Shown here piece after piece: positions 5,466 through 42,501 of a stretch of DNA of 64,000 bases. The number at the start of each line of letters is the position of its first letter. Within the stretch, counting starts at the first letter, position 1. Position numbers and translations under genes: made by a program. The notes below the pieces were generated by a model. The model saw only the letters and a list, made by a program, of their open reading frames with translations, had not been told where the DNA came from and ran no database searches. Origin of the DNA: a virus. Its lineage: Duplodnaviria; Heunggongvirae; Uroviricota; Caudoviricetes. The DNA is taken from IMG/VR virus record IMGVR_UViG_3300037488_002392, one strand, 5' to 3'.

Positions 5466-6493
5466 TTAAGTGTGAGATTTGTGGGAAAGGAATGGCGGCG
5501 GTTAATTGGTTGCATTTACGTACACATGGAGTAGATGTGGACGAGTATAGAATCTTGTATCCTAATAGTATTATAGTTAGCGAAGAGGCTAGGAGCAAAC
5601 ATTCTGATTCAATGTGTGAGCAATATGCGAATGGTGGGCGAGTTAGTGGTTTGATTAAATATATGAAGGAGCATGGTGAAGAACATAGAGAGTATATGTC
5701 AGGCGTTATAAAAGAGCAATATGCCTCAGGTAAAAGAGACAGGGGTATTGGTCGCAAAGTGAATTGGTCAGAGAAGGGCATGGAGTCCTTGAAGGTTCAA
5801 GGTAAACGATTAGGTCAATCTAATGTTGGTAGGAAACATAGTAAGGAATCTACTGAGAGACGGGCCGCTAAAATACGTGGTAAGTCTTATGAAGAGATGA
5901 TGGGTAAAGAAAAAGCAGATGCCTTGAAAGAGGATAGGAAGAGATGCTTTAATTGGATAGATGAACGTGGTCTACGCAAAGAGACTGCAACTCGTGGTTC
6001 AAGAGCACATAGGGGGTTAATGGACACAAACCCTGAATATAAAGAGAAATACCTCAAAAACCTTGGAGAATCCCATAAGGAAAGATGGACGGAGGCAACC
6101 AAGGAAGTGCGTACTAGTTGGGTATCTAACTGGATAAAAGCAGCGGGCATGAAACCCAATAATATAGAATTATATATCAAAGAGTTTTTAGACTTTACCT
6201 ATCCCAATGATTGGAAATATGTAGGTGATGGAAGTGTGGTATTAAACGGATTCAACCCAGATTTTATTAATGCAAATGGTAAGAAGCAAATTATTGAAAT
6301 CTTTGGGGATTATTGGCATTCCGAGAGGGTTAAGCATAGGACGAAAGTTGAGGAAGAGGAGTTGAGGTGTAGCAGATATGCAGAGTATGGGTATAGGACT
6401 CTTATTATTTGGGAGAATGAGGTGAAGAATAATATACAAAATGTAATGAAAAGAATCAATGTCTTTTGTGAGGAGGAAACAAAAATTGGGTAG
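5462..6493 (+). CDS. Homing-endonuclease-like protein with NUMOD3 repeats and a C-terminal Vsr/EDxHD-like (PD-(D/E)xK superfamily) nuclease domain.
   Basis: ATGA overlap with the upstream stop. Repeated G(R/Q)KHS.E.T-type NUMOD3 motifs. The C-terminal motifs EIFGDYWH and YGYRTLIIWENE resemble Vsr (FVDGCFWH / VIWECE). Paralogous to 28978..29865 and 60419..62011. Confidence 0.6.
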   Translation: MIKCEICGKGMAAVNWLHLRTHGVDVDEYRILYPNSIIVSEEARSKHSDSMCEQYANGGRVSGLIKYMKEHGEEHREYMSGVIKEQYASGKRDRGIGRKVNWSEKGMESLKVQGKRLGQSNVGRKHSKESTERRAAKIRGKSYEEMMGKEKADALKEDRKRCFNWIDERGLRKETATRGSRAHRGLMDTNPEYKEKYLKNLGESHKERWTEATKEVRTSWVSNWIKAAGMKPNNIELYIKEFLDFTYPNDWKYVGDGSVVLNGFNPDFINANGKKQIIEIFGDYWHSERVKHRTKVEEEELRCSRYAEYGYRTLIIWENEVKNNIQNVMKRINVFCEEETKIG

Positions 6494-6923
6494 CCCTAGA
6501 TGGTTGGTTGGGACAGTTCTTATCTGGTTATTGCTTACAATAGTAGGTAATATAATCGAGTATGCTGATGTGCTTACGGCAACGCAGGTAGCGGAAATAC
6601 AGAGTATGACAAATGTGAACGTAGCTGAGGCTGCTGACCCCACAGTTGGTGGGGTATTAACGTATGGTGGTGCGCCAAAGAACGTAATAGACGCTGTCAT
6701 CAAAGCAATAATGATGGATTTTACTTGGTTATACACTATAGATAAGACAAAAAACCAAGCGGAGTGCGCATTGGTGATTGGGTCGAAGTGGAGGGCATCT
6801 ATCCCTGCTTGCCAGATTCCCAATCAGTATTATTGGATATGGGCGTTATTATGGTGGCCTATTATGATTGGTATATTATTTGAGCTAGTTATTATGTTAG
6901 CGAGGTTGATAAGAGGTGTTTAA
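6459..6923 (+). CDS. Small membrane protein. The start is uncertain; an in-frame TTG at 6486 is possible.
   Basis: Long ORF with hydrophobic segments at the N- and C-termini. A GAGGAGG SD lies before the TTG at 6486. Confidence 0.5.
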   Translation: MSFVRRKQKLGSPRWLVGTVLIWLLLTIVGNIIEYADVLTATQVAEIQSMTNVNVAEAADPTVGGVLTYGGAPKNVIDAVIKAIMMDFTWLYTIDKTKNQAECALVIGSKWRASIPACQIPNQYYWIWALLWWPIMIGILFELVIMLARLIRGV

Positions 6924-7233
6924 AAGAATAGAGTTTTTATTTTGGATGCTGGTGGCATTGTTCATCCTTATTCCAATCCTAAATATGGTTGTTCAGAATT
7001 GGGTAAAGGACGGTGGAGCGTTAGACCAAACCTTTAATGCTTCTGATGTCAGTACGTGGAATGTTACGGGAGAAATAGTCACTGCAAATCAAACGGCGGC
7101 TATTGGTTTAACTCCACTAGAAAGGGCAGTTACACAGATGTATGTGCCTGCCTTTATCATATTCTTTGCGGTTATTACTCTCTATGTTTTGAGTAAAGGC
7201 GGTAACAATGGTGGGGGAGGGGCGTATAATTAG
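6916..7233 (+). CDS. Small membrane protein with a Gly-rich C-terminus.
   Basis: ORF with an N-terminal TM helix (FLFWMLVALFILIPIL) and a second TM near the C-terminus. The start codon is uncertain. Confidence 0.45.
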   Translation: MFKRIEFLFWMLVALFILIPILNMVVQNWVKDGGALDQTFNASDVSTWNVTGEIVTANQTAAIGLTPLERAVTQMYVPAFIIFFAVITLYVLSKGGNNGGGGAYN

Positions 7234-8250: not shown

Positions 8251-8834
8251 TACAAACACAGGACGTAAAACCAATGTTAGGGGGAATAAATTCTCCAGGC
8301 ACATTAGTAGGATTTTTACAGGCATTCGCAGCGAGTGCTGAAATAACAACATGGGTAGATAAGGTTAGTTATAAATATGTTGCTGACCAATATGTCAATA
8401 AGGATAGCATTTGCTCATCTACATTCCAATCAAGTGGTTCATTTTTAACAAATAGGTCTGGTTCATGTTATGACCTTGCAATGTTCTCAGCCAATATACT
8501 CAGGTTACTTGGTTATGAATGTGATATGCTGAACTTTGGTTGGATATCAGATATCAAGACAGTCCATGCTGCGTGTAGGTTTTGGCACAATGATGAATGG
8601 TATATTGTTCACGGGTTTTTAAATGGCAGGATAACCTCTATAGAGGGTTCTTTCTTCTCAATAAAAGACTTTATTGAGAAGTTTGCTGTAATGGAGAAGG
8701 AAGAAACTGGCAAAGATATTAAGATGATATTCATCGATAGTTTCGGGTTTGAAAAATTTGGCGAGCCAACTTCATTAACAAGGCTTTATCCTTCTAAGCA
8801 AGAAACAGTTAAATTAGGATATTGGGAACTTTAA
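8247..8834 (+). CDS. Transglutaminase-like (papain-fold) cysteine peptidase domain protein.
   Basis: GSCYDLAMFSANILRLLGYEC matches the Cys motif of transglutaminase-like proteases (G.C..fA..f..llR..GIP.R). The downstream HAACRFWHNDEWYIVHG matches the His motif (H.W.E.y). Confidence 0.5.
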   Translation: MIQTQDVKPMLGGINSPGTLVGFLQAFAASAEITTWVDKVSYKYVADQYVNKDSICSSTFQSSGSFLTNRSGSCYDLAMFSANILRLLGYECDMLNFGWISDIKTVHAACRFWHNDEWYIVHGFLNGRITSIEGSFFSIKDFIEKFAVMEKEETGKDIKMIFIDSFGFEKFGEPTSLTRLYPSKQETVKLGYWEL

Positions 8835-23800: not shown

Positions 23801-26800
23801 TTAGATAAAGCGTGGAAAGAATATGACGGAGCAAGGAAAGACGTTGGAGTTGTTATTGAGAGTCCAAGTTTGCCAAGGGTTCCTTCGGAGTTAGATGAAT
23901 GGTTTGATACTATATGGATAAGGGCAAGCAAGGGTGAGAATATAGAGACTGAATATGTAGGATATCTGAATAGGGTATATCCAAAACAATATGATATGCC
24001 TACTGCTATCAGGATGGCACGCTCTATTATGAATGAGGCTACTAAAGCTGGTTCTATAGTTGATGACATCCAAACTGGCAGATTGTCTAGAATAAGGGAT
24101 AAGGCAAGTAAGGGTGAAGATATAACAGATGAATATGCGCAATGGTCAGCAGACGTTTATAAAGGTTTTTATACTCCTGAGCAAGTTAAGCAATTTGCGA
24201 AGGTACTTATGGAAGAGGCTGGTAAAGAAAAGGCAGGTCTTGAAGATGCCCAATATCAAAGATTGGTCGACATTAGGGAGAGGGCTAAGAAGGGTGAGGA
24301 TATTAGTCAAGAGTATGCACAGTGGTTAGAAGAAACCTACAAAGGCTTTTATGATGAGGCGCAGGTTGCGACTCTGACTAAGGAGTTGATTGACGATTCC
24401 AAGCTGGCTAATACTGATAGTTATTTATTGAAAGTAATGCGTGATAGCGGATTGGTGAAGATTCCCAAGACCCTCGCTGAGAAGGTGTCAGATGGAACTG
24501 CTACCGAGAAGGAGTTCAAGCAATATCACGTAGTGCAGTTTAAGGATACTACTGGTAACAGGATATCATCCAAACGTCTTCAGAAAGATTGGGAGACTTA
24601 TCAGGCTGGAGTTAGAGAAGCAGCTATTGATAGGGGGGTAGCATATGACCCGTATACATATCTGCTGAGCAGATATAGGGAAACAGGTGAGAAGGTTCTG
24701 TCTGATGCAGTCAAAGAACAATATATTAAGTACAGGGCATTAGAATATCCTGAATTGGCGGAACAGGCGCAGAAAGCGATTGATGGCGTTTTGAGCCAAG
24801 CGGAATATGCGGCATTTATAGAGAGAGCCATTGACTTAACTGGGCTATATCCTTCTACTGAACAAATGAGTTTTGTCCCCTTAAACAGGATAACACTTGC
24901 GATGGAAAGCGCAGAATGGAAAATTAATAGGGCACGGGACAGTATAGCAAGGTTGAATAACATGTTGGTTGACACTACTAAGTTGTCGATTGATAAGATT
25001 ACGAAGACTGCTAATGATTTGAATGTCATATTAAGCAGCGTGGCAAGGGATGCCTCGACTTATGTGAATTCAAAGTTATACTTTGTTCAGGATTGGGCAG
25101 ATAGTATTCAGATAGCGTCACAGGTAGCAAATTTATTGATGCAGCAGATAGCTAGCAAAGCATGGGATAAAGCAAGGACTTCTTTGGTTAAGATTAGTAA
25201 TGCTTTGGCAGGGTATGAAGTCCGATTAGCCAAATCAGTAAATACTGCGTGGACTAAAGTGAGTGATACTGCATATGATAGGGTGGGCAAACCTATTGGT
25301 GAAGCGGCATTGAAGATTTCTACTCTAACCACTGACCTGCTGAATACAGTCAGGAATGCCACAGTTGAGAATTGGGATAAGGCAAAGGTCAATATTAGCG
25401 AGAAAGTGGATAGGTTATCAACACAGGTAAATGATGTTTATCGAAGTTTTGGATATGTGAAGGATGTAATGGATTCTGCCTTGAGTGCGAGGATAGAGTC
25501 TGTTCTCAACGATGCGAGGAACAATATTGAAAACGTAAGACAGTTTGTAAATAGCACTACGGTAGAACTACTAAATGAGAACCGTGCTAAATTATTAGCT
25601 GCTATGGAAGACATTAATAATAAGGTGTCACCAATACTAGAGGAAACAGGTAGGTTTATTAAAGAGAATTCAGCGATGTTGAGTGATGCAGTTAATATGG
25701 CTTGGGGAGTGAGGTCAGCGCAGTTTGTCGATATGGCTACAAATATTAGTAGAGATATAAGTGATGTGGGCAAGAAGGTCGCTGCTCAAACATCAGTGCT
25801 GTGGAGCAAATCAAAAGCTGGTATAGTGGCAAGCATCGAATCTATCGAAGCAAACGTGGCGGAGTTGAGGAAGCAATTGGACTATGTGGGCACGCAGCTT
25901 GATTCCATATCTAGAGCAAGGATAGAGGGTATTCTCAATGATGCACAAGTTAATATAAGTAGTTGGAAAGAGATGGTGCAAAATACCACAGTAAAGTTGC
26001 TAGATGAGAATCGTGCCAAGATAGTGCAGCTATCCGTGGATATAAATAGTAAGGTAACTCCTATGGTGGAAGATGCCAGCCGTGCCTTCAAAGAAGGTAC
26101 TGCGATATTAGGGGATGCTGCCAGCATGGTATGGAATGTGCGTTCAGTACAGTTTATTGATATGGTTAATAAGATAAGCAGTGATATAGCTGATATCAGC
26201 AATCAGCTTGCTTCACAGGCAGTTGGAACGTGGAACACATCTAAGGCATTAATCATAGTGAATATCAGCAAAATAAATGCTGATATAGTTAGCTTGAAAC
26301 AGCAACTAGATTACGTTGGTACACAGGTTGATTCTTTAGCACGGGCAAGGGTAGAGAGTGCCCTTGATGAGGCGCAATCCAAATTGAGCGTATGGGGCGA
26401 GCTGGTGAAGAACACCACGGCAAAGACATTATCTGATAATAGGGCTAAGATGGTTGAGGTAGCTACGGACATTAATAACAGGATTACTCCTATAGTGGAT
26501 GACATATCAAACAAAGTTGGTACGGCTGCTTGGGAGTCATACAGGAAATTGTCACAAATAAGTACTAATATATCTAACGAGTTGCAATCGTTTTATAATA
26601 CGGTTGCTAACTACACAAGAACCTACAAGGATTTGACTGTTGCAGGGATAGAGGCAAGGATGACCACTTTGCGTGCGATGATAGCGGAAGCTAAGTTAGT
26701 TGGTGATGAGGTAGCTATTCTTGCCAAGAATAACCTTATATCTGAAAGGGTGAATGACTATTATAATGATATTAGTAGCAATTTAGATATAATGTTCAAC

Positions 26801-28975
26801 GGATTGAAACGGGCTATTGATGAGAAGCGTGCTGACTTGAGTCCTGCATTAAGTAGAACCGTGATGGATGCTATCGCTATGAACGATAATGCTAAGAAAG
26901 CAGTGTCAGGGATGATTGCAGAGGTTGCGTTAGTAAGCATGGCTGCATTACGAGAATGGAATATGAAGGTAGTCAACCCTTTGATTGATGTGTCTGCCAA
27001 GATTGATAGTGCTATAGATAATGCCGCTTTGCTGACATCGTTATATGCAAAGGGTAAATTAGCAGAGGGTCAGGCAAATGTCCAGAAGCTAGCAGCCACC
27101 CTTGCCCCTTATATAGATGATGCTAGATACACTGCAAGTGAAATTGCACGGTTAACGAAGAATAACTTATTATCGGAGAAAGTAGCTAACTCCTTTAACG
27201 ATGTGAAGATAAATGTAGATGGGTTGTTAAAATCATTATCTGATGATATATCAAATGGTCGGGCTGACTTAAGCGCAAAGAGTCAGGAGTTAGTTACTAA
27301 GTTGTTAGATGCTAATAGCAAATTCAACGATATAGTCAGCGATACAAAGTTGATGGCGAGTCTTATATCAGAGGCTATGGTTGGAGCAGTAGATGAAGCA
27401 GTATTCAGGTCTGAAATGCTGATGGATAATATGGGAAGGGCAATCGATAACTTAGCGACACAGATTAAGCAGTCTGAGTTTACTCAAGCAACGATTAATA
27501 ATATCAATAATGGGATTGATGGATTCAATGGTAAGGTTGAGGAACTCAAGTTGATGAGTGAATTTTTGAAGAATGCTTATAGCAATAAGGCACATGAGAA
27601 GTATACAGACATGATAAGCAAGATGGGGAATGCCGTTGGCTCATTGCGTAAGTTTGCAATAGAAATACAGGGCAAGACTGGGGCAGCATTAGGAGCAGTT
27701 CAGGCACGATGGGCTGCTCTGTTGGATGATATTAAGCTCTATATGTCAGCAAGCAAATACAATTTTGGTGAATATAAGAATGACTTGAAACAGGGTGAAG
27801 TGCTAGGGGCAACTAACGTCAGAAAGTCTAATAAAGCTGATGCGGTCAATCAGTACAAACAAGCCTATGTGCGGATACAGGAACAGATAGCTAGGGAAAG
27901 GATAAAGCAGGGCCAATGGATGAGGGATGCCGCTAAGGTATTTGATGACAATCCAAGGCTGGCAGATAGGATGAGGGATGCAACTATATCTGCAACAGAA
28001 ATGCATAATCTCTTTGATGGGATATTGCCTAAAGATATTCTGGATAATGAGATAGCACGCATAGAGGCTATAAAGGCATCTAAGGGAACAGTTGGAGATA
28101 TTCCAAGCAAGTTATTAGATGAGGCACGCAGGGCAAGGCGTACAGATGAACCGAGGGTAGCACCTTTCAAACCAAGTATCTCTGTTCTTGTTCCAGCTAC
28201 CATACCTGATAGGGTAGATGCAGGGGGAAGACCAAGAGATTTCCTTACATCCTCAAGGATGATTTTGGCTGAGAGGAAAGAGCCACGACCCAGTGTTACT
28301 CCTCGTCCTGAACCACGACCTGTGCCCGCTATACGTCCTGAACCACGACCTGTGCCCGCTATACGTCCTGAACCACGTCCTGAACCAAATCCTCGTCCTG
28401 AACCACGACCTGATGGCGGAAGAGGAGATGGTGGTAGAGGCGGTGGAGGCAGAGGAGGCGGAGAACGTGGCGGAGGAGACAGGGGTGGTGGTGGTCGAGG
28501 GGGAGGAGGTCGTGGCGGTGGTGGTCGTGGTGGTGGGACTGGAGGGGGAATACGTAGTTTCCCTGTTATCCCGAAAGAGAAGAAGCGCACTTGGGATTCT
28601 CTGACTCGTGAAGAAAAGCTCGCATCCATAGTTTGGAAACAGGGTTGGGCATTTTGGTGTCTACCCCCGATGTACTCCCAAAAAGATTTGATTTACAGTA
28701 ATAAGCCATTTGCAGGGACTAAAATACATTCAGGCCCTAAATCAGCTTACAAGTCTGTGGCCAAAGTGAAAGGTGCCCAGCTTCCAGACAGAATAGATAT
28801 CGACCTAGGCATCATGGATTTATCTTTTGTAAGAGACAAAGATAGTAAAGATGTGAAAGTTTTCTACCGTGCAGACCCACTCCAAAAGACAACTGGTCAA
28901 GGGCCTTCCAATGTTCCAGAGACATTAACTCATCGTACTGGTCATGTTATAACGCAAGTTTCTTCAGTAGGTTGA
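8849..28975 (+). CDS. Giant multidomain protein of 6708 aa. It has a Pro/Ala/Gly-rich N-terminus, a three-fold repeated module bearing three zincin-like HExxH motifs, a CxxC thioredoxin-like segment, a GNAT-like segment, three tandem ~130-aa coiled-coil repeats and a C-terminal (PEPRP)n + (RGG)n tail.
   Basis: The 20,127-nt ORF is uninterrupted, with AAAGGGA SD before the ATG. The three HExxH motifs are HELSH (~14020), HEFGH (~15800) and HESGH (~16950), each preceded by a paralogous P(V/I)E.QQK..DAG segment. Internal repeats are visible at the protein and DNA level. Confidence 0.85.
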   Translation: MNYEELLRRLPVQRSLRYCNSPAPAAVAAAPPSPPSPSSLGDISPSSLDGGWGNTPGAAPPAAPPPGMATQAGAMQGILSNLGIALSTGGGASAPTGAPSIAWNPSQSLAFSQKYQMEPTGLTPQGFVYGTHGLDNGGGGGGGGDGKYRVGASPLVPDEDAKTMVTEGPYMGWTDSGTTKGSKGALTSIIGYAKGFGVPTGLSNLGFTYSSNPMAATAHNNNIGEKHDVDLTNTFEGYYRAVNAAIPPAKGVPAFNPGEKAWSEMWGRANVYTTQHEGDASPKNMVAILGAGPNSEIDSGSNTSVEDLIGVNGKILLYSDNKPVKGYVTRDNEGKIIAQSHVAYNADGSVASVSGALVGTGFMKAGQKIISLITVTPSEGNIWAQLRAGVSPNTDLLVEAEHQAYVNGVANGENVDGISNRPATAYGVLAAAGYSQAANAAYGNAVNVAQMKANAEGTVGPITRANMELAEGVAVYDKKGNEKAPTLRWDLVTGKVLVLPGAVAPQPSSDGLVSVAPKNWIEWGDFVKMANSADFKGIGQILDSTERAKYIDVLQKAAELYVKAAEAAPSKFAIDNKLDGKEKEAIVAIINGAKTSGGTDWVKAKYNIEDMRRGINQALSMPLGTEYIPPYSSEIKPKIEDGAGRFNAVESVYNDMVKEYAPAVVAAVVDWGAALRKSYGEASVLAQEALNSYQVRLLQTYAKYKGDWSKIGPVMAKVVADAQSSAESMEGAPASILPMFSQTIFTTKAEIIPSNPNMSKIERLPNGSYLAQYAGKIFNIKIDGSWNRYISDGDKYVLVPESELVAEDAELANAIIAEIKNEGAAVVVPGKTEAKVESHLEEEMPLPYGAPSKPLRGELIHLKEGAITQVPTQQAEFTGMLTDNTSVKLPNVLNNPAIRVVGVADNLEAIGIEYGGHNWAVEKRVVDGKVVYAACWGGSCKPTIYDSYDSVVGAITSGKVKFSETEANDTWESLTKMYALKPVAVQYPSIQNLSPQQIVDNALATRSSWIEPKKAGYDPLKDSFWKTVVDSFSLLGISPSLELKSQTEKPLLTILAEADIKDSKRITGEAVIPFWFDPSNESLKVEAFPLQFRGVVKAVNTANAQVYGEKKLGEGIAYIGWLSAFATALKMQNLTELHDSLVATTKYDLDKIYNSTELSEAAKDSLFNINSTSRTIKSNDEVAKIFAQNGIKDDAYKVKGSATDLKYDLDKINNSKTIPQAVKDSLYDIAYGTDASARTRKSDSEITKILEQNNIPTEAYLRPEADILIDWVSKNIKPDKLIPFSAWTEPNANYTIEGIVDGAIVKLILTMEDVAIVALGPWMVQSLLRDVIQRTFAPATLITGEPAKAASLWVALKAIFSTTCTNGGCFSNALPAILSAIGDVTVKIAGGKIGGASLVTHLSSQPVDAETPSLMATAVSGKTIPYRGELTDEQMGTNKVDYGNAVIGPDGKMITVGDGELRDYIGKSKGIVVVQTISAGCRMCEQQFADARKAIGEKYGYDNPYITYVLLNKNDDGTLSLINSLVAQGAAFTLEGTPETQIIINGKLLSYKEGGFIDGYKSDFVGILEKIATEQGINIFKGGFEAKPVQGAIPPVVPISKGNANLILASAVSFVKYDPHTILPADAKEIGLPPIPIEPSKIDLEKLDPKSSDTIWLTCYKNYNIPVEEQQKYYDAGIMLYEDSLDSSNLGYFIPGEKKVSLNIPLLQELLSNDKSMVVERTFAHELSHYQWDTELSSGQKKAFAIDILRTIKDDPFSPLAQEMRDVVGLYSGHYEGDLSFLVDIDSMDFERWNPDGYTKSFIEWTANRIFNEMHSRIFEDTYRARRLNMQIPIPDNLKQYFVSGTMDNKPDAKPFDYQIFKSQLSGIGGSLPMLENKPVPGSYRVGPSNEVDGPPELSDQVVATFTGKGTVKGRGNAPDTDMTVFYAVVKNPDGSVGGLWYKDAGGKWQEGDYKYHPKTGEIETIVCDMGGACSLRASDWKEGIKYVVDSKWAMPTVSAPPTAGSLPKEKVWGAQPVEKGKDSDWWAFFKPVIFAVDSLMLQASGFTQDEIDSGIKKGYTIPQLKQIAEEANKDRNAPNIKKDGLLRYGEDTLKVQPEKPQHVSQEVTINTQYLAQDVVTPLVADATGKVETKKLSKSATLLGPSLELTSPGGTKFIFDDKGELVSATKDKFTDRSELNNGWERVDVTQLMKARLQLEKYGNEPPVPMDYTGKNDNYDITTAEGIWRTWYQDYKVPVELQQKIKDAGIRLNISELKAEYAAQYEETINIHKDENILGKIIREVLSGKDSNDYVINMAMPPEEGVIMLGGGPLASIGHEFGHFLYGRGSDEQHKQLIAASKTIPNYSEIKNRVISVLGYDADTISKVWSSAELDDRVANEIYASLFNKLFDSRSRDYGVDLKLVPDDVKDTFFKAFSIKDDKMTSLGLSYSDLVNGTGWAMDALLESGKTSQALDKVIEDSLYRSGTKEETAFDKEIIKWIRGEKGVERTIPSYSEVKGKLVQLAKDITDGKISLDGAPVDVMNAIAALAREMPELGAPEAKPMRGELIKDYKQRSLADTFLAQINAPAVGLLEQLGDEKTLPGVINTWNKNTLPPKPHQYTLAEREAILSKKPESTNDYWKYQYAKFETPIELQQKIYDAQPRIFLTSGMGVAMGGLAFANPLTMLITALGGKSPFVGTDSLMLVAKEGTPDDIAFTFAHESGHYLYNGLPQQDKAKVTESLLTLSSRTSMVSSVSDAYKRLYGDIIGGLKGQSAVDNETFAEIFATIMTGKKNEWGYLADARIGLKELMDFQSIVMPYINKGLPSTRLSEEYKTETMLNEIRQTIFHKESFDPTHVTEWDKQVLASFDAHKEGKDNGDGTWSTTFNYKDIKADLQKIIDANKSGMETVEGAPDELKPIGRTEVIREFPTEILEPIGKTEIIHLPIITSGVSSDIFAPKPTQEIIEPKTIQLIKDGKGGDFPRKDGIYYKGGSGGTVVEYFIERGAGDIPLSIWYRDPKGIWASENFSRVGTDVKIECTQGLCAFHAADLAAGVKYIIDKGWKSYEAPSGVMPPVTPPASSTESKPEYETRNGVRVLKPRDGMPKEGMKWDILAPAVSSEEGRLLRSLGFKQFEIQAGIEKGYSVPQLKQIADMASKEKAHPTILREGLLKWGEETLKVQPEMPQSLLNDIPTTKEMIAGIKDRQTLGTAGDLSPFENTALGIVVDNTDEQGNVAWGKVTNGIKGLIALANSGAYPLKGTPARLAKSEVTEIKPITATVGDMAAVMAGSAFGQGISLEPWRVEAEGGDNRLLPINGATVTPSKSPNAPGGKDVTYASGGIGYVLSFMDNGKLACVSIDIGGKGNPVILYPEQLRGDNKIECSGGQCINMSAGLKPGLDWADSYISSGMELPEGRVFRDKSEAEPLKQVVVPPAKAEVVTSADAVAVPITKWKAESLQDQSSGNKESILAGFNSYGDKLYVSIGQLKEYQETVGKDMFKLLWDSGGAHNVNKYIDSQKASEETMEDTFRDMTVNGFLKWDKGSWKGETVGVSGNVPSPQDVSKALKTEDGFKGWDFGFSGFANFLRDKNVPDVEIENRLCSVGCNNTVEVMKTIPPDHFMSNKEFGEKYGDSTLSRKIVPRIGDEYRMGEGKNDPRFATGITDYGLAAGTKQDNPWLGFSAQVLNRWTQFTMDLDKGMEPLNVKRSPEAERQAELAQAIIDNSTTIRLSGRGAKSDTELGAVLGVSTQSGLGIFSPPISTKAKEDVYKMYDSAGEELGVMYSTDNLHKQFMGGKQKPVGEDAGSDAMRLLAAATSGVVTVAKMVGWDVPITVNKMAIDTIQGQFGDAFKAATLTSAGILLSPLTQTATSAEFMGKGDWPRGLGEFTGFMIGMFVGPKEIFQAGRRVLNVIDPSRSTYRAGFVEISLPATIHKDMIDIAILTAQNMAMEKINEAYYRGEKLPSEYRIPTTQGIVRVRISPEAMVDPMPSLSHVTNNPGLITGLRHDGAFVVGDRGIGSPALSLFVTGVGSAGGTVHFGLRLKEGEVPYAIKTIVSPTEFTNIPPTVRNKLWWHKSTDAMKALTKAWLEGDFGEEFMIATAKFWHKAGNLVEYEEAAPFKMVFTAAEKKMLPGYVKYERIDKDGKLIPDGDNTTPVAREIPYTLMESPIEMANDKGIVVIPQYGTYKEYLTISRAAWDFAIENNRPLLPSLMDTYKRELISVQQQVKALLEGKLRVNVNLATPEDLLTTSSPFYLAEKGVEVQPLKQSMYDDYQMRLDEPNNVTGQMGGIIVRFPEPFPLGADHQPFKKVELSQFGRVGGLVRSGQTIIPIDFKKGELILAVAQTDPLPRGMTKNFMEVPPGAFQKMVRKNPKEKFLTHHSNNELADYKLVVNKQLNSGYAVTPSGELVNFFNNGKKGEGAIVLLDAIGKGARNLNAFDGWLVGYYKKFGFVEVGRKKSTQAGIPDTVDMEYKGPAMFDDLVDVAAKNLGHSAKWAGSVKKMFKNEGEPLTVWGDAGGAIDMFEVNNFTDAANHSLRHELGYNVAGNLLKYIGTLLSKRKDHSLPGAQVWIADVSGMGNPVLKNAWNDRYADGTHKMPEIAVWNRWNPRTERITVDVAVYHAIEKIAKDYPQLGIDMSKVTKYVGDDFYSRKNLLENEDVGFADRPAIPLDEVRNMGVERAILRDRMVASGQPIEITGPLYSTSEKISPIVEQMTLFAEALPGYVSLRQQKAFKDANALIESVKEGGAPTFVTVNVERIARDLGIDAETVAAYKFNPTELVKVMIEKVAEVEAELKKQEAAPVPTTAEIIGLNNLVEKMSKGKFEFTADELKLQIKFGKELLQMMEDKVAEMKQKGEGTQPVAQPPVQQTILTRDKNGVEVHEGDKLFYEKPDGTRVQVDLTIKDGGMSHEAIPYTIEGKETWLHNFRDTEGNAYWQVNRDRLVVEKVAQPKVAALDGVAKVALSQEQLDVIEAKIDNGSVSELEFKSFMADAIKKSDNVELSTIELDKAWKEYDGARKDVGVVIESPSLPRVPSELDEWFDTIWIRASKGENIETEYVGYLNRVYPKQYDMPTAIRMARSIMNEATKAGSIVDDIQTGRLSRIRDKASKGEDITDEYAQWSADVYKGFYTPEQVKQFAKVLMEEAGKEKAGLEDAQYQRLVDIRERAKKGEDISQEYAQWLEETYKGFYDEAQVATLTKELIDDSKLANTDSYLLKVMRDSGLVKIPKTLAEKVSDGTATEKEFKQYHVVQFKDTTGNRISSKRLQKDWETYQAGVREAAIDRGVAYDPYTYLLSRYRETGEKVLSDAVKEQYIKYRALEYPELAEQAQKAIDGVLSQAEYAAFIERAIDLTGLYPSTEQMSFVPLNRITLAMESAEWKINRARDSIARLNNMLVDTTKLSIDKITKTANDLNVILSSVARDASTYVNSKLYFVQDWADSIQIASQVANLLMQQIASKAWDKARTSLVKISNALAGYEVRLAKSVNTAWTKVSDTAYDRVGKPIGEAALKISTLTTDLLNTVRNATVENWDKAKVNISEKVDRLSTQVNDVYRSFGYVKDVMDSALSARIESVLNDARNNIENVRQFVNSTTVELLNENRAKLLAAMEDINNKVSPILEETGRFIKENSAMLSDAVNMAWGVRSAQFVDMATNISRDISDVGKKVAAQTSVLWSKSKAGIVASIESIEANVAELRKQLDYVGTQLDSISRARIEGILNDAQVNISSWKEMVQNTTVKLLDENRAKIVQLSVDINSKVTPMVEDASRAFKEGTAILGDAASMVWNVRSVQFIDMVNKISSDIADISNQLASQAVGTWNTSKALIIVNISKINADIVSLKQQLDYVGTQVDSLARARVESALDEAQSKLSVWGELVKNTTAKTLSDNRAKMVEVATDINNRITPIVDDISNKVGTAAWESYRKLSQISTNISNELQSFYNTVANYTRTYKDLTVAGIEARMTTLRAMIAEAKLVGDEVAILAKNNLISERVNDYYNDISSNLDIMFNGLKRAIDEKRADLSPALSRTVMDAIAMNDNAKKAVSGMIAEVALVSMAALREWNMKVVNPLIDVSAKIDSAIDNAALLTSLYAKGKLAEGQANVQKLAATLAPYIDDARYTASEIARLTKNNLLSEKVANSFNDVKINVDGLLKSLSDDISNGRADLSAKSQELVTKLLDANSKFNDIVSDTKLMASLISEAMVGAVDEAVFRSEMLMDNMGRAIDNLATQIKQSEFTQATINNINNGIDGFNGKVEELKLMSEFLKNAYSNKAHEKYTDMISKMGNAVGSLRKFAIEIQGKTGAALGAVQARWAALLDDIKLYMSASKYNFGEYKNDLKQGEVLGATNVRKSNKADAVNQYKQAYVRIQEQIARERIKQGQWMRDAAKVFDDNPRLADRMRDATISATEMHNLFDGILPKDILDNEIARIEAIKASKGTVGDIPSKLLDEARRARRTDEPRVAPFKPSISVLVPATIPDRVDAGGRPRDFLTSSRMILAERKEPRPSVTPRPEPRPVPAIRPEPRPVPAIRPEPRPEPNPRPEPRPDGGRGDGGRGGGGRGGGERGGGDRGGGGRGGGGRGGGGRGGGTGGGIRSFPVIPKEKKRTWDSLTREEKLASIVWKQGWAFWCLPPMYSQKDLIYSNKPFAGTKIHSGPKSAYKSVAKVKGAQLPDRIDIDLGIMDLSFVRDKDSKDVKVFYRADPLQKTTGQGPSNVPETLTHRTGHVITQVSSVG
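25430..26520 (+). repeat. Three tandem ~390-nt (about 130-aa) repeats inside the giant ORF encoding coiled-coil-like segments.
   Basis: The protein segments LDYVGTQLDSISRARIEGILNDAQVNIS..., LDYVGTQVDSLARARVESALDEAQSKLS... and ...ALSARIESVLNDARNNIE... align with matching downstream TTVKLLDENRAK / TTAKTLSDNRAK / TTVELLNENRAK. Confidence 0.75.
28306..28365 (+). repeat. Perfect 30-bp tandem duplication (CCTGAACCACGACCTGTGCCCGCTATACGT x2) encoding PEPRPVPAIR x2 inside the giant ORF. It is followed by PEPRP and RGG repeat coding.
   Basis: Direct inspection of 28306-28335 and 28336-28365. RGG-type repeats are encoded at 28420-28550. Confidence 0.9.
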
Positions 28976-28977
28976 TT

Positions 28978-29865
28978 ATGGGAACTATAGGAAATAAATC
29001 ACGCACAGGAATGACTAATTCTCCCGAAATGAGGGCAAATATTAGTAAGGCATTGATGGGTTCTAAATGTGGGCTAGGGAATAAGAGTAGAACAGGACAA
29101 AAGCGTTCACCTGAAGAGATTGCCAAGCAAGTAGCTGCTTATCATGCAGGTGGTTATAAGCCTACAGAGGAACATAAGAGAAAATGCTCAGAGGCATTAA
29201 AAGGCAGAAAAAAGCCAGATGGTTTTGGTAAAGCAGTTAGTGATGCGTGGAAGAATGGGCGTAAGGTATCTATTGTCACAAGAGAGAAATTGAGTAAAGC
29301 ATCAAAAGGCAAGAAATGGACTGATGAACATAAATATTATATGTCAGAGTTATTTAAAGGTAGACCAATAAGTGAAGAACAGAAAAAACAGATTAGTGAA
29401 ACATTGAAAAAACAAAGTAAAGAACTATCAGAACGTGGCAAGAAACTTTGGCAAGACCCTGAAAAAGTCAAAGTAATGGTCAAAAAGATGCGTTGGGCTA
29501 GGCAGCAAAGACCTAATAATCTAGAAGCAGGTGTTATGGAGATGCTGAATAAACATTTTCCTGATGAGTGGCAATATTCTGGGAATGGTGGATTAGTTTT
29601 AGGTAGATGTTGTCCCGATTTTGTTCGCAATCATGGGCATAACCAAGTGATAGAAATATATGGTGATTACTGGCATCGTGGAGAAAATCCCCAAGATAGA
29701 GTGGATTTGTTTGATACTTATGGTTATAAGACATTAGTTATATGGGAGAATGAGGTTCACTCAATGAGTGAGGATGATTTTGTTAAGTTAGTATTCAAGT
29801 TTATGCAGAAGGTAGATTTATTCTACTATACTACAGATAGGGCAAACCAAATATCATTGGCTTAA
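28978..29865 (+). CDS. Homing-endonuclease-like protein (NUMOD3 repeats + Vsr/EDxHD-like nuclease), paralog 2.
   Basis: Starts immediately after the giant ORF stop. NUMOD3-like KHS.E / SEE.K.KIS motifs. C-terminal EIYGDYWH and YGYKTLVIWENEV. Confidence 0.6.
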   Translation: MGTIGNKSRTGMTNSPEMRANISKALMGSKCGLGNKSRTGQKRSPEEIAKQVAAYHAGGYKPTEEHKRKCSEALKGRKKPDGFGKAVSDAWKNGRKVSIVTREKLSKASKGKKWTDEHKYYMSELFKGRPISEEQKKQISETLKKQSKELSERGKKLWQDPEKVKVMVKKMRWARQQRPNNLEAGVMEMLNKHFPDEWQYSGNGGLVLGRCCPDFVRNHGHNQVIEIYGDYWHRGENPQDRVDLFDTYGYKTLVIWENEVHSMSEDDFVKLVFKFMQKVDLFYYTTDRANQISLA

Positions 29866-29996: not shown

Positions 29997-30107
29997 ATGA
30001 AAAGGTTTAGCAATATAGACTGGTATGGTATTTTGATGGTCTTGGCTCTAGTTGGATGGATAATGTTGATGGCTATTGTGTATATGGGGTATTTACCATA
30101 TAAATAA
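29997..30107 (+). CDS. Small hydrophobic peptide of 36 aa.
   Basis: AGGAGG SD 7 nt upstream. MKRFSNIDWYGILMVLALVGWIMLMAIVYMGYLPYK forms one TM helix. Confidence 0.5.
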   Translation: MKRFSNIDWYGILMVLALVGWIMLMAIVYMGYLPYK

Positions 30108-30318
30108 CAGCTTCTGTCTTGAAGGCTCTAGGTTATATATAAAGCTTTGGTTAATCTTTTGGGGAGGGTTACTACTGGGAACGATAACATTTCTTGCTAC
30201 CTTCCTTATGAAGGATGATTTTGCGTTTGCTATTATGATTGGTTTATTGCTGTGCCTATGTTCTTGGACAGTAGCCTGTATAATAGGGTGGATATTGGAT
30301 AAGTTGGAGAATAAATGA
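30076..30318 (+). CDS. Small membrane protein. The start is uncertain, possibly an internal ATG at 30208.
   Basis: Hydrophobic ORF with 2 TM segments. Overlaps the preceding small ORF. Confidence 0.35.
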   Translation: MCIWGIYHINNSFCLEGSRLYIKLWLIFWGGLLLGTITFLATFLMKDDFAFAIMIGLLLCLCSWTVACIIGWILDKLENK

Positions 30319-30587
30319 AGAAAGCATTGCCATTCCTTATCGGGTTCGTATGGTCATTTTGTTTGCTCTTTTCGTTTTCCTTAGTATCAGTATGGATATA
30401 TGGTTCAATCATAGCGTATATGAGAGAGTTGAAGATGCCTAATTGGGAGATTGAATTTACTGGCATAGTGTTAGCAGTAACAATAGTGGTGATAGCGATG
30501 AGGATTGCTTTATCTAAACAAGATATAGATGTGGGTAATTTGAAGAAAATGGTTACGGGTCGTTTTAAGAAAAACGATAAGGAGTAG
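30315..30587 (+). CDS. Small membrane protein.
   Basis: GGAG SD. Two TM helices. Confidence 0.55.
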   Translation: MKKALPFLIGFVWSFCLLFSFSLVSVWIYGSIIAYMRELKMPNWEIEFTGIVLAVTIVVIAMRIALSKQDIDVGNLKKMVTGRFKKNDKE

Positions 30588-30592
30588 AAACT

Positions 30593-30739
30593 ATGAATAC
30601 AATTATAGATTTTATATTATCTAATCTATTTGCCGTTGTTTCTTTAATAGGAATATTTACAGTATATTTGATGACAAGGACAATGGCAAAGTATGATAAA
30701 CTGAAGAATGAAAGAAGGATGGACGATAGTGAGTATTAA
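30593..30739 (+). CDS. Small membrane protein of 48 aa.
   Basis: AAGGAG SD 7 nt upstream. One TM helix (ILSNLFAVVSLIGIFTVYLM). Confidence 0.5.
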   Translation: MNTIIDFILSNLFAVVSLIGIFTVYLMTRTMAKYDKLKNERRMDDSEY

Positions 30740-30902
30740 GCGTTTTAATAAGGTGATGGTATGGGATGTAGTTGCTCTGCTTATAGGGACACTCATTGCA
30801 GTTTACTATAGGTCTGTATTTATAGAGAGTGTTGTGGTCATACTGGTTTTAGGCGTAATGCTTGGTTGTTTATTCTTAGTAGGGGCAAATTCAGATGAAT
30901 AA
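30708..30902 (+). CDS. Small membrane protein. The start is uncertain.
   Basis: Hydrophobic ORF (VVALLIGTLIAV...VVVILVLGVMLGCLFLV). Confidence 0.35.
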   Translation: MKEGWTIVSIKRFNKVMVWDVVALLIGTLIAVYYRSVFIESVVVILVLGVMLGCLFLVGANSDE

Positions 30903-31323
30903 CTTGAACAAGAGATTGCATTATGTGCAATCTGAACATAATCCGCAGGCTATGAAAGAATTATTATCACCAAAACATGATTATCACGGTGGGACTAAAC
31001 CAAGTATGAGGTTAATCATTGATGATATAAAGAAATCAAAAATGGAAGGGTTGGTGAATGGTATTGCTATTGTATTGCTTGCTGAATGGTTAGCAATAGA
31101 AGATGGCAAGACACGCTTACAATCAGCAGAATATCAAGAACAAGCTCAAGAATTAGCCGATTACCTAACTATTATTGGGTATGGACTTGTTATAGACACA
31201 AAAATTAACTTTATAAAATATATGGAAGGTACTTGCCCTCATCATGCTAAACCACGCAGAATACGTAAATTATGCATGCAGTGCTGGGAAGATGTCAAGA
31301 AGGAATGCGCTGATGGCAAATAG
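30895..31323 (+). CDS. Hypothetical protein with a C-terminal CxxC...CxxC cluster.
   Basis: ORF of 142 aa with a central TM-like segment and the Cys motifs CPHH...CMQC. Confidence 0.5.
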   Translation: MNNLNKRLHYVQSEHNPQAMKELLSPKHDYHGGTKPSMRLIIDDIKKSKMEGLVNGIAIVLLAEWLAIEDGKTRLQSAEYQEQAQELADYLTIIGYGLVIDTKINFIKYMEGTCPHHAKPRRIRKLCMQCWEDVKKECADGK

Positions 31324-31525
31324 TAATCATGTAAGTAGATTATTGGATTTAATCATGTCTATTTCTTGTTTAATTACTGTAGTGGTAATTGGCATCTTTA
31401 TGGTCTGTGATATATGTAGTCTAATTGCTGACCCACCTCCGCCCTATGTTAGATATGTACTTGGAGCAGTAATAGGCGTATGTGGCACAGCACCTTTTAT
31501 CAAAATGAGTGACATCCTTAATTGA
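31313..31525 (+). CDS. Small membrane protein.
   Basis: Internal ATG of track ORF 31244..31525. Two hydrophobic helices. Confidence 0.4.
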   Translation: MANSNHVSRLLDLIMSISCLITVVVIGIFMVCDICSLIADPPPPYVRYVLGAVIGVCGTAPFIKMSDILN

Positions 31526-31582
31526 CACATCCTTGTATAACCTGTTATACTCTACTATATAATAAATTATACGGAGGTATCC

Positions 31583-32464
31583 ATGGATATTATTTGCATG
31601 GTAACATTTGTTCTATCGTTTCTGGTGGTGGGTGTGTTATGGCTCTATAACAGGGAAGAGCAGCCTATCTCAAATTTATGGTGGTGTATCCCATCCATAT
31701 TCTTGTTTCTCTTTTTTTGTTTTGGCAGTTTCGCATCTGTTCCAGCAGGTCATCGTGGTGTGTTACTGAGGTTCGAAAAAGTAGAGAGTGTCCTTAGTGA
31801 AGGATTGAATGTTAAGATGCCATTGATAGACCATGTGGTGATGATGAGTGTCCAAACTCAAAAGTATGAAGAGCCAGCTACAGCAGCAAGTAAAGATTTG
31901 CAGGATGTCACTGCAAAAGTAGCAATCAACTATAGGGTAGACCCAGCGTTTATTGGAGAATTATATCGCACTCTTGGTGTTAATTACATAGACAGGATAG
32001 CAGCCCCTGCGGTTCAGGAAGTAGTTAAGGAGATTACTGCCCGTTATAATGCAGAGGACATGATACTCCGTAGGGCAGATGTAAAGAATGATATTACTAA
32101 CTCTCTTAGTCAGCGTCTTAGGGAACGTGGTATTATTACAGAAACAGTTAATATCGTAGATTTTAAGTTCTCGCCTGTATTCACTTCAGCTATTGAGTCT
32201 AAAGTGGCTGCGTTACAGGCAGTGTTAGAAGCTCAGAATAAGTTGGAGCGTGTTAAGATTGAGGCGCAACAGGCAGAAGCTCAGGCTAGAGGTGAGGCTG
32301 ATGCAGCCGTAGCAAGAGCAACTGGGCAGGTAAAGGCAATTGAAATATTGAAAGCCGCTTTAACTCCTGCATACTTGCAGTATATCTACATCGATAAATT
32401 GGCTAAGGATGCTAAGGTCATTGTAGTCCCTGCGGGTATGCCGTTGACTCTCTCTGGTTATTAA
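31583..32464 (+). CDS. SPFH/band-7 (prohibitin/HflKC-like) membrane protein.
   Basis: ACGGAGG SD. N-terminal TM helix. The SPFH core is VPAGHRGVLLRFEKV...INYRVDP... A C-terminal coiled coil is rich in AQ/EA. A possible promoter TTGACA-N17-TTATAC lies upstream. Confidence 0.7.
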   Translation: MDIICMVTFVLSFLVVGVLWLYNREEQPISNLWWCIPSIFLFLFFCFGSFASVPAGHRGVLLRFEKVESVLSEGLNVKMPLIDHVVMMSVQTQKYEEPATAASKDLQDVTAKVAINYRVDPAFIGELYRTLGVNYIDRIAAPAVQEVVKEITARYNAEDMILRRADVKNDITNSLSQRLRERGIITETVNIVDFKFSPVFTSAIESKVAALQAVLEAQNKLERVKIEAQQAEAQARGEADAAVARATGQVKAIEILKAALTPAYLQYIYIDKLAKDAKVIVVPAGMPLTLSGY

Positions 32465-32545: not shown

Positions 32546-33112
32546 ATGATGGCTACTAAGAAAATTTACAGAACAGTAGGCGTGGTTCCCCCCGCCACCA
32601 CTGAAATGTATCAGGATGCGGATGGCAATTGGATGAGGGATGGTGGAGCAACATGGGATGCAGACAGGAAGGCGTGGAGGAGGACGTTATGGAAGTTAAC
32701 GGAGCCAACCTATAGGGTTACGTATAATGATGGTACGCAAACAATCTGTGAGACTCCTCCCGAAGTTTATGTAGAACCCATTGAGCCTGTAAATCCAGTG
32801 GAACCGATAGATGAATCTGAATCATCTATAGATAGTGAACCAGTAATGGGAGAAGAGAGTCCTATTGAAGTTATGAGACCACATGTTGTATCAGTGGAAG
32901 ATGTACCTGCTCAATGGGAACTGAATAACGAATACACATCATCATCAGAAAGACCTGAATGGGATGAATACATGACCAGGGAAATAATTGGCATAGAACC
33001 TATAGTCGCTCCTCTCCCGCAACAAAGAGAAGATGGCGGTGATTGGCTGGCTCAAAAAGTTAAACGAGCAAAAGGGATAGGCGGTATGCCTACAGTTGGA
33101 ATATTTAGGTAG
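32546..33112 (+). CDS. Hypothetical acidic protein, paralog of 7291..8250 (W-rich N-terminus, PEWD repeat, IVAPLPQ motif).
   Basis: ORF of 188 aa with the motifs DGNWMRDGGATWDADRKAW, ERPEWDEY and PIVAPLPQQ. Confidence 0.6.
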   Translation: MMATKKIYRTVGVVPPATTEMYQDADGNWMRDGGATWDADRKAWRRTLWKLTEPTYRVTYNDGTQTICETPPEVYVEPIEPVNPVEPIDESESSIDSEPVMGEESPIEVMRPHVVSVEDVPAQWELNNEYTSSSERPEWDEYMTREIIGIEPIVAPLPQQREDGGDWLAQKVKRAKGIGGMPTVGIFR

Positions 33113-42048: not shown

Positions 42049-42501
42049 CTATTCTCCTATCTGCCTTGCTATGCCGTACTCAGCTATAGTCTTATAGGTC
42101 TGATTTGTGATTGCTGCGGTATTGATTTCGCCAGATGCTACCACGGTGTAGTCACGTATAAGCCTTTTATTGGATACGCTCACGTGGTCACCGTGCATGT
42201 AATCGTTGGCGGTTGCCTGTTCATAGGCAGGGTCGTATCTGCCAGTTATGGGAGTCCAGATGATGCGGTCACCGATTGCCCCACCTGTTACCCTCTCACA
42301 GAGTGCTGAGAGCGTGGTGGCAGGGTTGCTCAGGTTCTTACGTGCTTCCAGTGTGTAGACCCACTCTGACGGCTCGCCAGCCATGCGGAACGCCAGCACG
42401 ATGCACCAAAGACTGCCCCTGCGGTCAGTCAAGAATTGCCCGATGTTGTATCTCATTTTAGGTGCTTTCATATTTAAACCCCCTTGATTATCATACTTCA
42501 T
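42049..42501 (-). CDS. Hypothetical protein. Alternative start at 42471 with an AAGGGGG SD.
   Basis: TAATG overlap with the stop of the upstream GHKL gene, suggesting translational coupling. Confidence 0.5.
   Translation of the reverse strand: MKYDNQGGLNMKAPKMRYNIGQFLTDRRGSLWCIVLAFRMAGEPSEWVYTLEARKNLSNPATTLSALCERVTGGAIGDRIIWTPITGRYDPAYEQATANDYMHGDHVSVSNKRLIRDYTVVASGEINTAAITNQTYKTIAEYGIARQIGE

Follow-up and report, generated by a model that had tools for sequence, protein, structure and literature searches.

The window analysed here, the whole 64,000-nucleotide stretch of the Caudoviricetes record IMGVR_UViG_3300037488_002392 from IMG/VR, contains a giant open reading frame (ORF) that encodes a protein of 6,708 amino acids. 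A first-pass annotation had drawn attention to positions 25430-28560, described as coiled-coil tandem repeats followed by a PEPRP- and RGG-rich tail. This interval corresponds to residues 5528-6571 and lies in frame within the single uninterrupted ORF (Table 1), of which it forms the C-terminal sixth. The conserved feature of the region, which that annotation overlooked, is a Pro-rich spacer placed before a conserved C-terminal domain. We describe the anatomy of the protein, its relatives and its gene neighbourhood, and weigh the roles that such an arrangement may have.

Anatomy of the giant protein

The ORF measures 20.1 kb. An identical protein, P0005, is present in a public collection on a contig of the Joint Genome Institute (JGI) that is 92.8 kb long and of which the ORF occupies about 22%. 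A word-index search with 5,000 residues returned P0005 itself and no other protein. Neither a signal peptide nor a transmembrane (TM) segment was found in the 6,708-residue protein. The JGI name of P0005, “YgcG membrane protein”, was dropped, as the protein has no TM segment and the name is probably an artefact of Gly-rich composition. The first 5,000 residues gave no Pfam match, and searches of Pfam and PHROGs with three segments spanning the entire protein yielded only a sub-threshold match to Apolipoprotein, composition-driven matches (PARP, GUCT, transposase) and phrog_2563. Sequence searches of the PDB with both parts of the protein, and with profiles of the C-terminal domain and of the HExxH modules, returned nothing meaningful.

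Among 50,697 phage records, neither the flagged region (DNA and tblastn) nor the N-terminal 3,000 residues found a match. The GNAT-like acetyltransferase domain, which accounts for the phrog_2563 match, is the sole similarity of the giant protein to any phage record. Upstream of it lie three paralogous modules with an invariant HExxH motif, which are zincin-like at the level of the motif only. Further internal duplications were seen at residues 1146/1206, 1632/2205/2594, 1940-2116 versus 2994-3180, and 5043/5103.

The flagged region itself opens within a rod of about 900-1,000 residues, which is probably a hendecad coiled coil as judged from its periodicity. The Fourier spectrum of hydrophobicity over residues 5460-5950 peaks at 3.66 residues; the power at a period of 3.667 is 293, compared with a mean of 63 and a maximum of 103 in shuffled sequences, and harmonics are present at 2.2 and 11.0. 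The coiled-coil-like nature of the repeats reported in the first pass is thereby upheld, although the heptad character assigned to them is not, for the power at 3.5 residues is only 30. Folding of the sequence onto 11 positions places the hydrophobic residues at four positions spaced 3-1-3-4, corresponding to a, d, e and h, where V/I/L/M/F/W/Y make up 53-69% of residues as against at most 27% elsewhere. The core of the rod is a canonical hendecad pattern that stays coherent across long stretches. Proline amounts to 0.9% of residues 5350-6420. The Pfam family Apolipoprotein, itself a family of 11-mer repeats, scores 54.9, far below its 90-bit cut-off.

Repeats within the rod were detected by BLAST of 200-residue fragments against the rest of the giant protein. 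The best pair, residues 5559-5700 versus 5702-5843, is 49% identical (E = 4.5e-43), and weaker copies flank it on both sides. Compared in register and ungapped, copies 2 and 3 share 48% of amino acids and 58% of nucleotides, against 7 +/- 2% for random offsets, and the outer copies are 14-21% identical. Tandem protein repeats had thus been recognised correctly in the first pass, but not as three units of about 130 residues: the unit is 143 residues long with one proline in each, there are two clear and two degenerate copies, and the array begins at 25094, some 340 nt ahead of the start given before. The array is old, with two good copies and two decayed ones. Since 143 equals 13 x 11, each duplication keeps the hendecad register. 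The stretch of about 1.5 kb after the repeats, previously described as helical, is also present; it comprises about 490 Pro-poor residues with hendecad or mixed periodicity.

The low-complexity tail that follows spans 91 residues (6477-6567) and is the sole long low-entropy stretch of the protein besides a short Ala/Pro/Ser-rich patch near the N-terminus. Both motifs named in the first pass were located. In the Pro/Arg/Glu-rich half, PEPRPVPAIR occurs twice at residues 6487-6506 and is followed by PEPRPEPNPRPEPRP at residues 6507-6521. The GGRG and RGGG repeats occupy residues 6522-6567, a block of 46 residues with 33 Gly and with 8 Arg at an exact spacing of five residues, making up 7 RGG, 7 RGGG and 6 GGRG. 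The perfect 30-bp tandem is likewise real, except that it starts two nucleotides earlier than 28306, at 28304, and stays periodic through 28377. No other perfect tandem of period 6-60 in the window is as long, and it represents a recent in-frame duplication of ten codons. The recent slippage that the first pass read from it accordingly holds for this unit but not for the Gly-Arg block, in which each of the four Gly codons and four different Arg codons occur; with its codons so diversified, the block has been maintained at the protein level and is not a product of recent slippage. Two further ORFs over this region, 27865-28629 on the minus strand and 28293-28604 in the +2 frame, are full of PPPRPPPP or VVVE and were rejected as genes; they are low-complexity shadows of the coding repeats.

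The conserved C-terminal domain and its changing spacer

The domain of about 105 residues that follows the spacer, together with a short terminal peptide, is common to about 25 metagenomic relatives, most of them giants. Family searches covered 5.8 billion and 1.84 billion proteins; relatives are referred to below by L and P numbers. The 141 residues after the low-complexity tail found four homologues on short JGI contigs, and scans with the alignment of homologues gave 12 loci in metagenomes and one in genomes, in a metagenome-assembled genome (MAG) of Clostridiales (DHFP01000089.1). A profile search added five more proteins with the domain. An exhaustive HMMER search with the rod (residues 5300-6440) against the 1.84 billion representatives returned six proteins only; three of these, taken over their whole length, are giants of 3,949-5,389 residues ending in the same C-terminal domain. 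Wherever the contig permits, ORFs that carry the domain reach 1,854-5,389 residues, and the domain occurs only in giant proteins or in fragments cut by contig ends. It is up to 87% identical to that of the window, in contrast to 25-26% for the rod, and most other parts cannot be aligned.

An AlphaFold2 model of the domain built from a 10-sequence alignment had a predicted local distance difference test (pLDDT) score of 70.8, whereas a 5-sequence model reached 42 and was unusable. The terminal peptide follows the consensus [TS]-x-[VILMFG]-[GS]-x-[VILMF]-[RKG]-COOH. Its motif is found in 8 of 982 six-frame ORFs from the window and nine loci, of which seven are the giants and one is a member of a 188-residue protein family encoded downstream. 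In the window the 188-residue protein ends in PTVGIFR and matches a looser pattern only. This protein and its homologues in L004, L005, L012 and L013 have a basic patch and then ends of the TVGIFR, RVGVVR or QVGMLR type, which are similar to the terminal peptide of the giant and, loosely, to the TVGSL targeting motif of encapsulins.

The rod is more variable than the domain. P0011 has at least four copies of a unit of 139-143 residues, P0014, P0015 and P0016 have four or five copies of a 149-residue unit, and P0013 has only a weak 128-residue repeat. Copies within one protein are 27-49% identical, as compared with 25-26% for rods between proteins, so amplification has been either independent or concerted. 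The length of the rod is about 770-1,200 residues in five distant proteins. In a subfamily of 2.9-3.5 thousand residues (L011, L015, L017) no long hendecad rod is present, and that of L013 is limited to about 275 residues. Since these rod-poor relatives keep the spacer and the C-terminal domain, the rod is optional, while the spacer and the domain are constant.

A Pro-rich repeat spacer precedes the C-terminal domain in every relative, with a sequence unrelated between lineages. The spacers measured are 42-101 residues long, contain 17-45% Pro and range in net charge from -10 (L011) to +11, that of the window being +9. TTPI repeats are found in L002, L006 and L007, and TTPP repeats in L004, L009, L013, L014 and P0011. 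L005 and L008 carry EYKPTEYPP, L010 has eleven copies of PSERTT, and L011 has YDGGDDYTPPP followed by about 30 Pro. KYPPxGEYPP occurs in L015, TPT repeats with polyproline in L016, PRVxxPR in P0006, and ERP/EKP repeats in P0013 and P0016. The hypervariability predicted for the tail is thus borne out, each lineage having a different repeat peptide at the same position. A Gly/Arg-rich stretch was seen among the relatives only at the truncated end of L001. Judging from the spacers compared, the RGG block is peculiar to the lineage of the window and is one version of the spacer.

Comparison of close relatives gives a different picture. The TTPI spacers of L002 and L006 differ by an indel of one 12-nt unit, and over 70 codons they show 38 synonymous codon differences against 1 non-synonymous. 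Such an excess of synonymous change shows that purifying selection acts strongly on the peptide inside a lineage, even though the spacer is replaced wholesale between lineages. In the copy-number comparison proposed in the first pass, this 12-nt unit is the one difference seen between close relatives, which do not cover the 30-bp unit of the window. The repeat units of 30, 15 and 12 nt are all multiples of three, and copy changes therefore alter the length of the spacer and not the frame. The idea of a contingency (phase-variable) site finds no support here, as all these units are in frame within the coding sequence and synonymous changes prevail to such a degree.

The junction between spacer and domain is also a point of mosaicism. 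The DNA upstream of it is 100% identical between L005 and L008, but their C-terminal domains are only 76% identical; L009 and L014 are likewise identical upstream with divergent domains. One type of domain is shared by L005 and L014 (99.7% identical) and the other by L008 and L009 (100%), so that each of the two spacers is found joined to each of the two domains. A NUMOD3 homing-endonuclease gene, 80% identical to the copy that follows the giant gene in the window, lies directly 3' of the giant gene in L008 and L009 and is tied to the second type of domain. The mosaic could reflect real recombination, possibly an endonuclease-driven co-conversion, or else chimeric assembly across the conserved junction.

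Gene neighbourhood

The features of the giant gene and its neighbours are collected in Table 1. The window, L011, L013 and L020-L022 share a conserved gene order, which consists of a DUF2341 protein, a protein of about 600 residues, two or three small proteins, the giant gene and further small proteins. The protein of about 600 residues carries fn3 domains in the window, and L016 also has the DUF2341 and ~600-residue genes. These DUF2341/fn3 neighbours weakly resemble minor tail proteins. The small upstream proteins have N- and C-terminal hydrophobic segments in most of the syntenic loci, with only partial synteny in L022, and may be membrane-active on the strength of these segments. An identity as G/GT tail chaperones was considered for the two small ORFs of the window and ruled out; both are two-TM membrane proteins with no match to tail chaperones. 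NUMOD3 genes are found 3' of the giant gene of P0011 as well and at 23787-24623 of L020.

Table 1. Coordinates of the giant gene, its parts and neighbouring genes in the 64,000-nt window
Feature	Position	Strand	Remarks
Two small two-TM proteins (154 and 106 aa)	6459..7230	+	N- and C-terminal hydrophobic segments; synteny upstream of giant gene kept in relatives
Giant ORF, 6,708 aa	8849..28975	+	holds the whole region discussed; AGGGA resembling a ribosome-binding site 5 nt upstream of ATG
Three paralogous HExxH modules	14021..16963	+	HExxH at aa 1725, 2318, 2701
GNAT-like acetyltransferase domain	21866..22279	+	aa ~4340-4477; phrog_2563 E = 1.3e-19; tblastn matches to annotated phage acetyltransferases
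Hendecad (11/3) rod	24689..27493	+	aa ~5281-6215; from sliding-window power at period 3.667
143-aa repeat, copy 1	25094..25522	+	aa 5416-5558; degenerate
143-aa repeat, copy 2	25523..25951	+	aa 5559-5701; well kept
143-aa repeat, copy 3	25952..26380	+	aa 5702-5844; well kept
143-aa repeat, copy 4	26381..26809	+	aa 5845-5987; degenerate, first half recognisable
Second, weaker repeat pair	26642..27274	+	aa 5932-5998 / 6076-6142; offset 144 aa, 39% identity
Post-rod sequence up to spacer	27494..28276	+	aa 6216-6476; last part (NF..Y..D...LG ... RI..Q) matched by eye to P0011 and P0013
Pro/Arg/Glu-rich half of spacer	28277..28411	+	aa 6477-6521 (45 aa): 19 P, 9 R, 6 E; decapeptide repeats
Perfect 30-nt-periodic stretch	28304..28377	+	74 nt, 2.47 copies of cgtcctgaaccacgacctgtgcccgctata; 28304-28347 = 28334-28377
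Gly-Arg half of spacer	28412..28549	+	(GGGxR)x8, 15-nt period, diversified codons
Conserved C-terminal alpha/beta domain	28550..28888	+	aa 6568-6680; motifs ASIVWKQGW, KPFAGTKIH.GPK.AYKSV, LP..I.IDLGIMD; family-defining
Disordered basic tail and terminal peptide	28889..28972	+	pLDDT < 50; ends TQVSSVG
NUMOD3 homing-endonuclease gene	28978..29865	+	begins 3 nt after stop codon of giant gene
Conserved 188-aa protein	32546..33112	+	C-terminus …KRAKGIGGMPTVGIFR resembles terminal peptide of giant protein

Hardly any gene of the window or its relatives could be placed in a Pfam family, and scanning the window for tRNAs and Rfam families gave no match. The genes further upstream in L021 and L022 encode TSCPD, KH and DUF4379 proteins, a DNA methyltransferase and a radical SAM protein, with no virion family among them. 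No type IV secretion system gene was seen in the window or the related loci.

Several other features of the window were noted. Three more endonuclease-like genes lie at 5261-6493, 48646-49317 and 60419-62011; one has a DUF559-like C-terminus, one is HNH_3 and one is HNH with PHROG matches. The gene at 5261-6493 breaks the gene order otherwise kept in the relatives. Between the two small membrane proteins and the giant gene, 7291-8834 holds an ORF of 319 residues and one of 195 residues that is transglutaminase-like (cysteine-protease fold), both present in the window and not in the relatives; the 195-residue protein is a possible protease for processing of the giant. At 30076-32464 lies a cluster that encodes four very small proteins, each having one or two hydrophobic segments, and after them a protein of the SPFH/Band-7 family (Pfam E = 3.9e-29); the relatives lack this cluster at the same position. 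Two proteins on the minus strand, encoded at 38659-40071 and 42501-44249, have an N-terminal GHKL/HATPase_c_3 domain; the latter has homologues in 77 phage records, the best being Moorella phage MTATph1 and Exiguobacterium phage vB_EalM-132. At 46632-46703, in an ORF-poor region where the coding strand switches, a 21-bp unit TTATGGACGAATAGCTTTAGC is repeated 3.4 times at 96% identity, and an AT-rich 19-bp repeat (46376-46420) adjoins it; these iteron-like repeats may mark an origin or regulatory region.

Possible roles and comparison with known systems

We favour, with roughly an even chance of its being right, the reading that the giant, the product of a phage-like element, is a polyvalent protein that the virion delivers and that consists of a rod, a tether and a docking domain. 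The protein would be packaged in the particle and enter the host with the DNA, as polyvalent proteins and the giant ejected protein of N4 do. The C-terminal domain with its terminal peptide would serve as a constant “address” by which highly variable cargo is docked to virion machinery that is itself conserved. The disordered Pro-rich spacer would act as an extended tether whose length, about 40-100 residues, matters and whose sequence does not. The rod would oligomerise the protein or set a distance, having grown by tandem duplication of the 143-residue unit. The RGG block would be the tether version of one lineage, adding positive charge and perhaps an incidental affinity for nucleic acids. 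One ground for the reading is that GNAT, NUDIX, LigT and Metallophos domains are typical of injected effectors; of these, NUDIX, LigT 2H-phosphoesterase and Metallophos are found above Pfam cut-offs in the relatives. Other grounds are the restriction of the C-terminal domain to giants and their fragments, the gene order that these share, the close conservation of the domain beside a divergent rod, the spacer present throughout and the selection on it, the near-exclusive occurrence of the terminal motif in the giants, and the precedents of polyvalent proteins and N4 gp50. Anatomy, periodicity, family, spacer turnover and selection, synteny and enzyme domains are observed, whereas packaging, ejection and docking are inferred.

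A number of observations weigh against it. The purifying selection on the spacer exceeds what a passive tether needs, and the subfamily lacking a long rod, together with the short rod of L013, shows that the rod is not obligatory. The C-terminal domain has no structural neighbour and no Pfam or PHROG family, and the docking role that we infer for it is argued from its pattern of conservation. The three HExxH modules obtained no support from Pfam or from PDB profiles. No capsid, portal, terminase or tail hallmark gene was detected, either across the 64 kb of the window or at the related loci. When IMG/VR was scanned with the domain, with the repeats and with the family alignment, no match was obtained; neither the contig nor any of its relatives is in that collection. 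The assignment to phages rests on homing endonucleases, a few PHROG matches and tblastn matches to phage genes.

The main rival, which we regard as doubtful, holds that the giant is a tape-measure protein to which effector domains have been fused, the hendecad rod being the ruler. Each 143-residue duplication would lengthen the tail by about 21 nm, taking 0.15 nm for a residue, and the C-terminal domain would sit in the tail tip and nucleate tail assembly. A long Pro-poor rod with tandem duplications is what such a protein would have, and rod length is similar in the five distant relatives despite their different units (143 versus 149 residues). The weak resemblance of upstream genes to minor tail proteins agrees with it, and so does the strong conservation of the C-terminus, which would suit contact with conserved tail-tip proteins. 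Among controls, lambda gpH is mostly heptad, and SPP1 gp18, a genuine tape measure, has an equally strong hendecad segment (residues 661-880); hendecads are therefore compatible with a tape measure and not diagnostic of one. The genomic context, however, fits badly. None of the three segments that together span the protein matches a tape-measure family in Pfam or PHROGs, the pair directly upstream consists of two-TM membrane proteins and not of G/GT chaperones, and downstream are a homing endonuclease and small proteins in place of distal-tail or baseplate genes, in L020-L022 as in the window. No tube, sheath, Dit or Tal gene flanks the giant gene in any locus. The rod, moreover, makes up only about 15% of the protein and is not a long one in the subfamily of 2.9-3.5 thousand residues, and hydrophobic segments for membrane insertion are absent.

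The first pass had placed the functional point of the region in the RGG/PEPRP tail, seen as a module for binding nucleic acids or for phase separation. Eukaryotic RGG boxes do bind nucleic acids, and the seven RGG motifs, the regular Arg spacing, the positive charge of the spacer and the diversified codons, which imply that the peptide has been maintained for some time, are in keeping with such a module. A literature search on RGG in phage proteins yielded nothing relevant. We nonetheless consider this role quite improbable. The motif is missing at orthologous positions except for the Gly/Arg remnant of L001; T/P, E/K/Y/P, D/Y/P or polyproline spacers, neutral or, as in L011, strongly acidic, stand in its place, and a function that depends on Arg and Gly therefore can't be the conserved one.

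Less probable again is an exposed, envelope-spanning fibre or adhesin on the plan of TonB, TolA and Gram-positive wall-spanning proteins, in which the rod would point outward, the Pro-rich segment would cross the wall or periplasm, and the C-terminal domain would bind the host surface, the spacer diversifying under host or immune pressure. The succession of rod, Pro-rich spacer and small C-terminal domain does resemble the architecture of TonB and TolA. Linkers rich in Thr and Pro are typical of extracellular proteins, the neighbours carry fn3 and DUF2341 domains, the latter of which we take to be lectin-like, and the spacer is hypervariable between lineages. The absence of a signal peptide and TM segment and of a match to TonB_C or any other Pfam family speaks against a fibre, and nucleotide-directed enzymes (NUDIX, LigT, GNAT) make sense inside a cell and not as parts of a fibre. 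Finally, it is scarcely credible that the 30-bp duplication arose in assembly, or that slippage there switches the gene on and off as at a contingency locus. Contigs of relatives often break within the spacer (L001, L003, L007, L012), which shows that the repeats are hard to assemble, and one copy-number difference separates close relatives. A typical read, however, is longer than the 74 nt of the periodic stretch, the contig around it extends to 92.8 kb, and units that are all multiples of three make a frameshift switch impossible.

To return to the virion-delivered polyvalent protein, a bolder form of this reading, which we think unlikely, would see a dedicated loading system in a rare, undescribed phage-like group, where a novel domain of about 105 residues and an encapsulin-like peptide on a lineage-specific Pro-rich tether load megadalton-scale, freely shuffled effector polyproteins. 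Selection on the tether would then be diversifying from one lineage to another and purifying inside each, a pattern that suggests recognition by the host or the virion side. Should the C-terminal module prove to be a loading tag, it would offer a route to how very large cargo enters and leaves phage particles, and a portable tag for foreign cargo.

The proteins form a small new family (about 25 members) of giant multi-enzyme proteins with a constant C-terminal module that has no known fold or family. The eye-catching RGG box is a changeable version of the spacer and not a conserved RNA-binding module like those of eukaryotes. A spacer swapped between lineages yet purified within one is uncommon and makes selection on “disordered” sequence open to test, and the 143-residue duplications show a coiled-coil rod that grows in register-preserving units.

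Each part of the protein has counterparts in known systems. In TonB, TolA and the Gly-rich linkers of M13 g3p, a rigid or flexible low-complexity spacer connects a part that is helical or serves as an anchor with a small domain for docking at the C-terminus; the present protein has no Pfam homology to these, no membrane anchor, and a very different size and context. Apolipoprotein 11-mers and hendecad coiled coils share the 3.67 periodicity, the a-d-e-h core and the weak Pfam match, but the 11/22-mers of apolipoproteins are punctuated by Pro, unlike the units found here. The tape measures lambda gpH and SPP1 gp18 likewise have long helical, repeat-bearing segments, hendecad in SPP1 gp18; the lack of a family match, the gene neighbourhood and the minor share of the rod set the giant protein apart from them. 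Encapsulin cargo-loading peptides are short conserved C-terminal motifs of the “TVGSL” type (PMC8346489). The resemblance to them is loose: in the giants, too, a disordered stretch leads to a short conserved peptide at the very C-terminus, roughly of the form T-x-G/S-x-hydrophobic-R/K; here the motif is degenerate, and a folded domain of 105 residues stands between the spacer and the peptide.

The closest parallels are with proteins that are ejected or injected. The giant gp50 of N4 is encoded beside small membrane-active ejection proteins, and linkers join its parts so that it behaves like beads on a string (PMC13434306). As in the gp50/gp51/gp52 cassette of Schitoviridae (N4-like phages), the giant gene here adjoins small proteins, which have two TM segments and are conserved upstream in the window, L011, L013, L020, L021 and partly L022. 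The N4 virion RNA polymerase, at about 3,500 residues, has already been termed giant; the proteins described here reach 6.7 thousand residues, about twice that size, and differ further in having no match to an RNA polymerase family, no sequence similarity to the N4 cassette, and hosts that are probably Firmicutes, as one relative lies in the Clostridiales MAG, and not Gram-negative. Phages also package and inject multidomain polyvalent proteins, for which delivery with the DNA has been predicted (Iyer, Burroughs, Anand, de Souza & Aravind 2017, PMC5512222). Proteins of this class join two to fifteen unrelated domains, mostly enzymatic, and their genes lie near packaging or late genes in phages or near transfer genes in conjugative elements. 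The text of that paper makes no mention of a coiled-coil, tape measure or low-complexity segment, and none of the hallmark domains of polyvalent proteins (MuF, DarB-type helicase/methylase, ART, ArdC and others) was detected here. The likeness lies in the overall design, a giant single polypeptide that combines several unrelated enzymatic domains, with GNAT and three HExxH modules in the window and NUDIX, LigT and Metallophos in its relatives.

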